From assembly GCA_043814055.1 (NCBI GenBank), contig JBDRKL010000004.1, positions 64,001 to 128,000 on the forward strand: DNA of 64,000 nt. The letters are read 5' to 3'. A program made the position numbers and the translations under genes. Below the pieces are notes generated by a model. It did not search any database, was not told the DNA's origin, and was given only the letters and a program-made list of their open reading frames with translations. Below are positions 49,084-49,440 of the stretch, in pieces. The stretch comes from an archaeon (lineage in GTDB: Archaea > Undinarchaeota > Undinarchaeia > Undinarchaeales > JBDRKL01). Positions within the stretch are counted from its first letter, which is position 1, and the number at the start of each line of letters is the position of its first letter.

Positions 49084-49098
49084 CGAAAGCTTTATATA
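49084..49098 (+). promoter_or_regulatory. BRE/TATA promoter upstream of the hairpin-array RNA
   Basis: CGAAAGC TTTATATA, ~20-25 nt before the structured region and ~375 nt before the next ORF. Confidence 0.65.
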
Positions 49099-49117
49099 CC
49101 CTCACGGATTACTAGAT

Positions 49118-49440
49118 TTCCCCTCCGGGGGTCTGACTGTATTGGGGAGGCATTTCCAATCTCTCAGAACAAGCTTGGGTTGAGGTGGGATCTGTGAAAG
49201 CCTTCGGGCTTACATGGAATTTATCTTGACCCACTCTAAGATTGGACTGGGTGGGGGAACGCGAAACCTTCGGGCGACGCGCAATTCAACCCGGTCCACT
49301 CTAAACTTGGATTGGGGTTGGACATGTAAAATTTTCGGATTTTATGCGAAAGATCTCAATCCACTCTAACCTGGACCAGGTGGGAGAGCGCGAAAGTTTC
49401 GGCAGACGCGTAATTTAACTTGGTCCACTCTTCTTCTCAA
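49118..49440 (+). ncRNA. Candidate novel ncRNA: leader hairpins plus four tandem co-varying UUCG hairpins
   Basis: Units 49176-49233, 49243-49298, 49308-49363 and 49372-49427, each TGG...TTCG...CCA followed by CTCT; many G-U pairs favour the + strand. Confidence 0.8.

Follow-up and report, generated by a model that had tools for sequence, protein, structure and literature searches.

A Tandem Array of Hairpins Upstream of cca

What is encoded in the 1.08-kb non-coding stretch that separates the genes rpS3Ae (positions 47763–48392) and cca (49473–50834) of an archaeon of the order Undinarchaeales? We analyzed 64,000 nucleotides of its genome (contig JBDRKL010000004.1 of assembly GCA_043814055.1, positions 64,001 to 128,000 of the forward strand; hereafter, the window) and found that the last 390 bases of this stretch are filled by the elements of an array of four tandem, rod-like hairpins on the + strand. 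The host genome of the array (G000) comprises 0.98 Mb and is 82% complete. The evidence from folding, covariation, and comparison with related genomes establishes that the array is a genuine RNA gene whose structure is under selection. Furthermore, the base of each hairpin resembles the end of a tRNA precursor, and it seems to us an even bet that the array is a polycistronic precursor of tRNA-minihelix mimics, similar to the known t-elements, that would be processed by RNase P and RNase Z before receiving a CCA tail.

The four hairpins (units 1–4; 55–57 nucleotides (nt) each, from G1 to A73 in the tRNA-like numbering used below) span positions 49177–49427. A preliminary description of the locus, made from the sequence, had listed a box of the B recognition element (BRE)/TATA type, two leader hairpins, four UUCG-capped hairpins at periods of 67/65/64, and an internal loop shared by units 2 and 4, and all of these elements are present. 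The periods hold when the hairpins are counted from the U before G1 (49176–49233, 49243–49298, 49308–49363, and 49372–49427). Unit 1 (49177–49233; 57 nt) is a nearly continuous rod with the flanks aagctt-GGG...CCC A-ctctaa, and a covariance model built from nine units (R1) matched it with 60.1 bits (E 1.2e-14). Unit 2 (49244–49298; 55 nt; 68.7 bits) is composed of 9 bp, a 1x1 loop, 3 bp, a 3x3 loop, a CGCG stem, and an AAA/CGA loop below its cap, and unit 4 (49373–49427; 55 nt; 56.5 bits) follows the same plan with an AAA/AGA loop, so that the two have CGCG-AAA..NGA-CGCG in common. Unit 3 (49309–49363; 55 nt; 72.6 bits) has an 11-bp basal helix, a 3x3 loop, and a long A/U stem. Every unit carries the UUCG cap and is followed by CUCU (CUCUAA after units 1–3; CUCUUCUUCUC after unit 4). 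The linkers (49234–49243, CUCUAAGAUU; 49299–49308; and 49364–49372) are 9–10 nt long, compared with 8–11 nt in the relatives, and the first of them reads as a trailer-like CU.. followed by a leader-like ..UU ahead of the next G1.

Folding and Covariation

When the array was folded, the + strand reached a minimum free energy of −132.2 kcal/mol, compared with −105.8 ± 5.8 kcal/mol in 100 shuffled sequences (z −4.54; 0/100 as good), whereas the − strand gave a z of only −1.74, with 4 of the 100 shuffles as good. Covariation was evaluated in a MAFFT alignment of nine units from three genomes that was not fitted to any structure. In this alignment, 90.7% of the cells were paired compared with 75.9% in shuffles, none of which reached 90.7% (0/500), and double-sided (compensatory) changes occurred in 13 of the 18 pairs, a count equalled by 1 of 500 shuffles. 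Shifting the partner columns by 1–3 positions reduced the pairing to 30–55%. Even between two genomes of the same genus (G003 and G007), a compensatory pair distinguishes unit E of one from that of the other. The stems contain many G-U pairs, and the covarying arms lie ~40 nt apart. These results, namely the strand asymmetry, the covariation, and the conservation, indicate a structured RNA on the + strand.

The internal loops are conserved as well. In the five genomes that carry the family, nearly every unit has the same 5′ junction strand, (G)UGGGAGA(A), together with purine-rich loops; the UGGGAGA lies opposite a 3′ AAYUUA, and AAA/NGA loops are also found, whereas the apical loops of all four units are plain UUCG tetraloops. 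Read from the sequence and the folds, the internal loops are purine-rich and symmetric (3x3, 3x2) and do not have the 3-nt bulge of a K-turn; this geometry, with no strand-length asymmetry, does not favor a K-turn reading. Two further ideas for the GGGAG segment were set aside. Its GGAG could pair with the CUCU tail here, but relatives have CUUAAA, CUAUAA, or CUCACA as the tail, and this idea was abandoned; a Shine–Dalgarno-like role, in which GGGAG would be the complement of the 16S 3′ end CUCCU, is an unsupported idea.

The preliminary description had proposed a structured non-coding RNA, with structure conserved while the sequence drifts, that matches no Rfam family, and our analysis agrees: besides the folding and the compensatory changes, Rfam returned nothing relevant for the array, either at gathering scores or at E ≤ 10. 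It had also been unable to match the array to signal recognition particle (SRP) RNA, RNase P RNA, box C/D, or canonical H/ACA RNAs, and had set it apart from CRISPR arrays and recent tandem duplications. RNase P RNA, 5S, and SRP RNA were each found elsewhere in the genome; the matches to C/D families are confined to 48428–48600, with none in the array; and the H/ACA identity fails on the absence of an ACA box and of targets. A CRISPR array was rejected because the units are less than ~70% alike, their variable parts pair with each other, and Tandem Repeats Finder did not report the array, the units being too diverged; its sole report was a separate 120-nt repeat at 48816–49046. A genome-wide scan for hairpins with the same borders gave 24 matches, four of which were the array units. 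Among the others, 10 were examined: 9 lie inside open frames of 157–1119 codons, and one led to a second hairpin family, which is described below.

The Unit Borders Resemble tRNA Precursor Ends

Could the bases of these hairpins be copies of tRNA ends? We compared the borders of 20 units from the five genomes with those of the tRNA genes of G000, G007, G010, and G011. The near-invariant bases of the units are their borders, U before G-G-A on the 5′ side and U-C-C-A-C-U on the 3′ side, with covarying stem positions 4–9 between them. Position −1 was U in 19/20 units, G1-C72 and G2-C71 were present in 20/20, A was found at position 73 in 19/20, and the next two bases were CU in 19/20. The sole unit with C at position −1 is unit C of G003, and an apparent U:A closing pair is therefore not required. 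The UGG/CCA closure noted in the preliminary description is thus there in its bases, but the U is position −1 (and C in that one unit), and the "CCA" is most likely C71-C72-A73. Likewise, the CTCT described as invariant does follow all four units here, but across the genomes only the CU after the A is constant, and the full CUCU is specific to the genome of the window. On these sequences, the "UGG...CCA + CUCU" pattern is best parsed as U(−1), G1 G2 A3 ... U70 C71 C72, A73, and a CU-trailer. Under this acceptor-like reading, any CCA tail would not be encoded but acquired once the unit had been cut.

The tRNA genes of the clade show the same flanks. In the host genome, ARAGORN gave 38 tRNA genes that could be parsed (2 further calls were skipped), of which 21 encode CCA and 17 do not. 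Among the 38, U(−1) was found in 27, G1 in 34, and A73 in 24. The trailers of the CCA-less genes start with CU in 9/17 and with UU in 7/17. With 10 tRNA loci sampled per genome, the CCA-less trailers starting with CU numbered 5/10 in G007, 3/5 in G010, and 8/10 in G011, so that the four genomes together gave CU in 25/42 and UU in 12/42. The resemblance is seen directly when tRNA-Val(cac), gtt-GGACCCG...CGGGTCC-A-ctcttac, is set against unit 4, cct-GGACCAGG...CTTGGTCC-A-ctcttct (hyphens mark the borders).

The length of the basal helix also fits. It is known that tRNA end-processing enzymes measure the 12-bp stack of the acceptor and T arms. Counted from G1-C72 up to the first true loop or junction, the helix covers 10–14 positions in 18/20 units (median 12), and the remaining 2/20 are first interrupted at 13 bp and at ~10–12 bp; this is close to the length of the stacked acceptor and T stems of tRNA. 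The helix ends in a purine-rich internal loop or junction, not in a T-loop. Closely spaced tRNA genes occur in the same genome, with those for Asp and Lys only 6 nt apart, and the 8–11-nt linkers of the array can be read as a trailer plus a leader. The units thus display, as t-elements do, an acceptor-like terminal helix together with a leader, a discriminator, and a trailer of the pre-tRNA type.

Distribution of the Array and Its Synteny with cca

R1 found exactly four matches in the genome of the window, all inside the array, which corresponds to one locus per genome. A larger model of 19 units detected the family in 5 of 151 related genomes; a sixth match, inside a coding region of G006, was counted as false. 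A BLAST search of the array against 41 relatives yielded only two weak true matches, which on inspection led to full arrays, and covariance models were required. The homologous arrays contain six units in each of the same-genus genomes G007 and G003; G011 has three units, some of them branched, and the two units of G010 are large and branched, with branched units reaching ~110 nt. The array occurs across three families, with 2, 3, 4, or 6 units, and lies directly upstream of cca on the same strand in 5/5 genomes carrying it. Variation in unit number and synteny with cca were the points for which the preliminary description had suggested a covariance-model search, and both were found, as were structural homologues in related genomes, whose absence it had named as a refutation.

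A strict pattern scan of 185,579 species genomes gave 74 stretches. Of these, 68 were single matches in bacterial records, and the R1 verdict covers the archaeal stretches: four Undinarchaeota records were real (L075, L082, L096, and L097), and the two archaeal single matches (L106 and L110) were negative. The same pattern was found in 115 stretches of metagenome contigs, and 0/80 of those listed matched R1. In the literature searched, which excluded subscription journals and supplements, we found no paper describing such an array.

How much does the adjacency to cca tell us? The downstream open reading frame (ORF) does encode a CCA-adding enzyme, as had been proposed; it is a class I enzyme of 453 aa on the + strand (Pfam PF09249, 1.3e-39; PF21133, 3e-38; PF01909, 5.8e-09). 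The gene is present in 15/17 Undinarchaeota genomes, with or without the array. The ancestral layout throughout the order is rpS3Ae, a C/D small RNA (sRNA), the optional array, and cca; it is seen without the array in G004, G006, G008, and G012, and in G007, G003, and G010 rpS3Ae still lies less than 1.5 kb upstream with an inserted ORF between. Indeed, the spot between rpS3Ae and cca is a hotspot, with inserted ORFs in G001, G002, G003, G007, and G010. Furthermore, cca keeps its own TATA-like box ~27 nt before the ATG (GTTTTTAAAG, 49442–49451 of the + strand in the window) whether or not the array is present, leaving little or no leader. The adjacency is largely explained by this ancestral synteny and, given the separate TATA-like box as well, is alone weak evidence of a functional link.

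Proposed Transcription and Processing

Transcription, both cleavages, CCA addition, and the downstream function are all inferred, and the steps of the model are given here accordingly in the conditional. The array would be a separate, promoter-driven gene giving a polycistronic RNA of ~330 nt with four tandem rod hairpins (2–6 in relatives). A BRE/TATA-like box, cgAAAGcTTTATATAc (AAAG + CTTTATATA), lies at 49085–49099 on the + strand and is the putative promoter; boxes of the TTTAAATA/TTAAATAT type precede the arrays in G007, G003, G011, and G010, and the AAGCTTTAT box is shared by the C/D sRNA gene at 48428. A leader of ~75 nt with two small hairpins separates the box from unit 1. The first of these, CCCCUCCGGGGG at 49120–49131 (+), was found in the computed fold, and a short, non-homologous hairpin occupies the equivalent spot in G007/G003 (CCCCUGAAAAAGGG) and G010 (GUCCGCUUCGCGGAU). 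The second, at 49144–49158 (+), is a GGCA-capped mini-hairpin, GGGGA-GGCA-UUUCC followed by A, seen in both sequence and fold, which may be read as a degenerate "unit 0" with the flanks UU-GG..CC-A. The transcript likely ends in the 3′ tail at 49428–49447 (+), which consists of a pyrimidine tract, CUCUUCUUCUCAAAG, and then a run of five U (U5); a U-run is found at the matching end in G011 (U7) and G010 (U4).

The base of each hairpin would present a copy of the clade's pre-tRNA end, with ..UU, G1-G2-A3/U70-C71-C72, an unpaired discriminator A, and a CU trailer. RNase P would cut ahead of each G1, and RNase Z, or whatever matures the CCA-less tRNAs here, would cleave behind each A73, and the product of the adjoining cca gene would then add CCA. 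The products would be stable, UUCG-capped minihelices of 55–57 nt (58–60 nt with CCA; up to ~110 nt and branched in relatives), whose displayed purine-rich loops presumably bind a protein or compete with tRNAs for acceptor-end enzymes. The conservation of these loops points to a partner that binds them, and the mimicry of acceptor ends to an interaction with tRNA-end enzymes. The preliminary description had suggested a precursor that is cut at its linkers to give ~60-nt units, and the pre-tRNA-like unit borders lend this indirect support. Both nucleases are at hand: RNase P RNA is encoded at positions 3873–4205 of contig C12 (141 bits), and RNase Z at 30672–31559 of contig C10 (367 bits, compared with a cut-off of 293).

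In addition, an upstream element common to several tRNA genes of this genome precedes the array promoter, which we count in favor of the model. This element of ~45 nt, ..CTTGCTCGGTAGTCCCGCAGCATCA-N8-TGCGGGACA.. (also written ..GCTCGGTAGTCCCGCAGCATCA-N8-TGCGGGACA..), lies at 49008–49055 on the + strand. A loose pattern of its core gave 28 matches in the genome, ~14 of which were read as full copies, and 5/28 sit 50–96 nt upstream of same-strand tRNA starts called by ARAGORN (Ser-tga, Thr-ggt, Thr-tgt, Leu-tag, and Asn-gtt). Further copies are found in the window (48888–48935, ~17022, and ~62195) and on other contigs, one of them preceding a C/D-like sRNA. The element might serve stable-RNA genes as a leader or promoter module.

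Several observations weigh against this processing model. The units have no T-loop or elbow and no cloverleaf, and the tRNA model RF00005 (threshold 29 bits) found no match in 48350–49500 even at E ≤ 10; the tRNA matches of Rfam in the window are only those at 53547–53661 and 62470–62541. Archaeal RNase P and RNase Z might fail to accept such elbow-less units. The A-CU 3′ flank is also seen in 5S rRNA (..CCAGGC-acttcaac) and in the C/D sRNA (..GAGCA-ctcaatg) and may be a general mark of stable-RNA 3′ ends, or the flanks could have been inherited from a tRNA-derived ancestor rather than being used. The model also leaves the conserved UGGGAGA strand and the purine loops unexplained. Finally, no array lies upstream of cca in 10/15 loci examined, two of them from the genus of G010, and the function of the array is therefore dispensable or replaceable.

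Alternative Explanations

Could the full-length array, without any tRNA-type processing, serve as a multivalent protein-binding scaffold or sponge, with the UGG..CCACU base and the purine loops as protein sites? We regard this reading, whose protein-binding part the preliminary description had raised, as possible but doubtful. The recurrence of (G)UGGGAGA(A) and of the purine-rich loops in nearly all units of five genomes would suit such a role, as would the flexible unit number (2–6), and the plain UUCG caps throughout would place the information in the internal loops and the helix base. However, a scaffold leaves unexplained why the unit borders match the clade's pre-tRNA borders position for position; moreover, the loops do not show the strand-length asymmetry of a K-turn, and no candidate protein was identified.

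It is unlikely that the array is a functionless, lineage-specific relic, formed by tRNA- or insertion-derived hairpin repeats piling up in a recombination hotspot between rpS3Ae and cca. This spot has taken up ORFs in five genomes and, in the host genome, repeated partial copies of the 3′ end of the C/D sRNA; a second hairpin family with acceptor-stem copies occurs in the same genomes and appears insertion-like in G010; and the distribution of the array is patchy. On the other hand, a relic would not be expected to be kept across three families with compensatory changes in 13/18 pairs and constant borders, to have a promoter-like box and a terminator-like end in every array-bearing genome, or to show the compensatory pair that separates the E units of G003 and G007.

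It is very unlikely that the array acts in cis as a leader of cca, for instance by sensing tRNA 3′ ends through its UGG motifs and so controlling read-through into cca. Such a role would account for the position of the array upstream of cca on the same strand in 5/5 genomes, even where genes are inserted between rpS3Ae and the array, but ancestral synteny also accounts for this adjacency. Furthermore, the box of cca at ~27 nt before the ATG leaves little or no leader with or without the array, U-runs (U5, U7, and U4) close the array before that box, 10/15 cca loci do not have an array, and no alternative terminator/antiterminator pairing was found.

We considered an atypical, multi-hairpin H/ACA-like guide of pseudouridylation, with a lower stem, a pocket, and an upper stem, in which ACU replaces ACA, and judged it highly improbable. 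Tandem hairpins of ~60 nt, each followed by a conserved trinucleotide, are what such a guide would show, the genome encodes the proteins Cbf5 (64 bits), Nop10 (68 bits), and Gar1 (47.5 bits), and Rfam saw no other H/ACA RNA within the window. However, there is no ACA/ANA box, as A-C-U follows the stem in 19/20 units; the strands of the "pocket" largely pair together, giving a basal helix of 10–14 positions; and the 5′ pocket strand is alike in almost all units, which is unexpected for guides to different sites. When 16S, 23S, and 23 tRNAs were searched, units 2 and 3 had no bipartite target, the best targets of unit 4 were equalled by 18–44% of shuffles, unit 1 had one GU-rich target equalled by 2/100 shuffles, and the complement UCUCCCA was absent.

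A DNA-level element is hardly credible: the TCCA..TGGA that flanks each linker and the G-rich string behind it are reminiscent of archaeal origin recognition boxes or iterons, but the strand asymmetry (z −4.5 vs −1.7), the many G-U pairs, the UUCG caps, covariation across ~40 nt, the direct orientation of all repeats, and the absence of an orc1/cdc6 neighbor speak for RNA.

Neighboring and Related Elements

The second hairpin family, to which the border scan led, is built differently. Its basal stem copies the acceptor stem of the adjoining tRNA gene (Cys, Ser-gga, and a Trp-like start; Ser and Leu in relatives), and surrounds the conserved core CACAG(A/G)CCUU-NNN-AAUUGGUUACUGUG; the hairpins often occur in tandem. 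In the host genome it was found at 18622–18752 and ~117045–117200 of contig C10 and at ~47150–47215 of contig C6, and in relatives at L292 (G010, C2:18491–18599), L293 (G007, C4:3725–3764), L291, L294, L297, and L299 (G003). The loop triplet is GCA beside tRNA-Cys and CCA beside the Trp-like stem, and AAA, ACA, or GAA elsewhere. Two copies in G010 repeat the beginning of a protein gene, a pattern that resembles an insertion. By BLAST, the family was present in 4/5 array-bearing genomes and 0/8 array-less genomes of the order; as the genomes are related, this count is not a statistical test. The family may be a sign that hairpins with acceptor stems are more widespread in these genomes, or else that an insertion mechanism produces them.

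Between rpS3Ae and the array lies a box C/D sRNA (48428–48492), which gave weak matches to Rfam C/D families; most Undinarchaeales have kept it in the stretch from rpS3Ae to cca. The D′ guide of this sRNA has a 10-nt match in 23S rRNA near position 2620 (GGGUGUUCAC), which we take to be the A-loop region. Four more partial copies of its 3′ end (GCUUCUGAGCAAUC) were found at 48545–48600, ~48745–48770, and 48816–49046. Two of these lie within the 120-nt tandem repeat (1.9 copies, 90% identity), which also holds a GC hairpin and a U-run. The copies could be miniature sRNA genes or scars of duplication or integration at the hotspot.

Many tRNA genes of the host genome contain introns of up to 193 nt, as called by ARAGORN, and the tRNA at 53547–53661 of the window spans 115 nt. 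The intron of tRNA-Val(tac), on contig C9 (50698–50845), carries a CUUUUGC-UUCG-CAAAAG hairpin that is nearly the same as the second arm of the branched units of G011 and G007.

Significance and Comparison with Known Systems

To our knowledge, there is no earlier natural archaeal case of a stand-alone array of tRNA-end mimics. If the processing model is true, the array would be the first such tandem array in which the mimics are the gene product and not punctuation, and it would follow that the tRNA maturation pathway of archaea is open to elbow-less hairpins. The array would also provide a handle on tRNA 3′-end maturation in a genome-reduced, probably symbiotic lineage in which about half of the tRNA genes (17/38 in the host genome) are CCA-less. 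A further step, which we put forward tentatively and consider improbable, is that Undinarchaeales make dedicated, non-decoding, CCA-tailed minihelix RNAs from a polycistronic gene that act on tRNA-end biology. Such minihelices could buffer or regulate the neighboring CCA-adding enzyme and RNase P/Z, act as decoys for enzymes or toxins that attack acceptor ends, or carry amino acids for non-translational purposes. If the parallel with the second hairpin family holds, "acceptor-stem mimic RNAs" would be a broader theme of these archaea that has not been described before. Should the mechanism prove wrong, the array still defines a new, covariation-supported RNA family with a 7-nt loop strand conserved in almost all units. 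This family, new to Rfam, is best filed as a variant of tRNA-like (t-element-type) RNA.

How does the array compare with known systems? In type III toxin–antitoxin loci of the ToxI kind, a promoter, a tandem repeat RNA, and a terminator-like end are followed by a gene for a protein acting on the repeats. The array shares this layout, with a downstream protein that could act on its repeats. An antitoxin RNA was nevertheless rejected because the downstream gene encodes a housekeeping CCA-adding enzyme, not an endoribonuclease toxin, and the units are diverged, covarying hairpins instead of near-identical 36-nt repeats. Archaeal H/ACA sRNAs likewise consist of tandem hairpins (one to three, of ~65 nt), each followed by a conserved single-stranded trinucleotide, but the array has no ACA box, no usable pocket, no complementarity to rRNA or tRNA, and the same 5′ loop strand in almost all units.

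Closer to the proposed mechanism are the hairpin-type substrates of RNase P, among them the precursor of bacterial 4.5S RNA and minihelices of the acceptor and T arms. These are rod hairpins, as are the array units, and their terminal helix is read as an acceptor stem, as proposed for the array, although the 4.5S precursor is a single bacterial hairpin with a known function (SRP), whereas the array is archaeal and tandem. In mammals, mascRNA and the tRNA-like small RNA of MEN-beta are non-decoding pieces that RNase P and RNase Z release from a longer transcript and that are then tailed with CCA. They are eukaryotic cloverleaf mimics in single copy at the 3′ end of a long non-coding RNA, whereas the array units have no D or T arms and no anticodon loop.

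The closest relatives are the t-elements. According to PMC4326828, which cites Hölzle 2008 and 2012, RNase P and tRNase Z of Haloferax volcanii act on these tRNA-like structures, with one natural case before 5S rRNA; PMC1920247 places t-elements in plant mitochondria as well. Like the array units, t-elements are non-tRNA structures that mimic pre-tRNA ends; they are cut by RNase P and tRNase Z, which for the array is a proposal. Known t-elements are single and cloverleaf-like and define the ends of a neighboring RNA, whereas the array comprises 2–6 tandem, hairpin-only mimics in a gene of their own. Because only 8–11-nt linkers lie between the mimics, the mimics themselves, unlike t-elements, would be the product.

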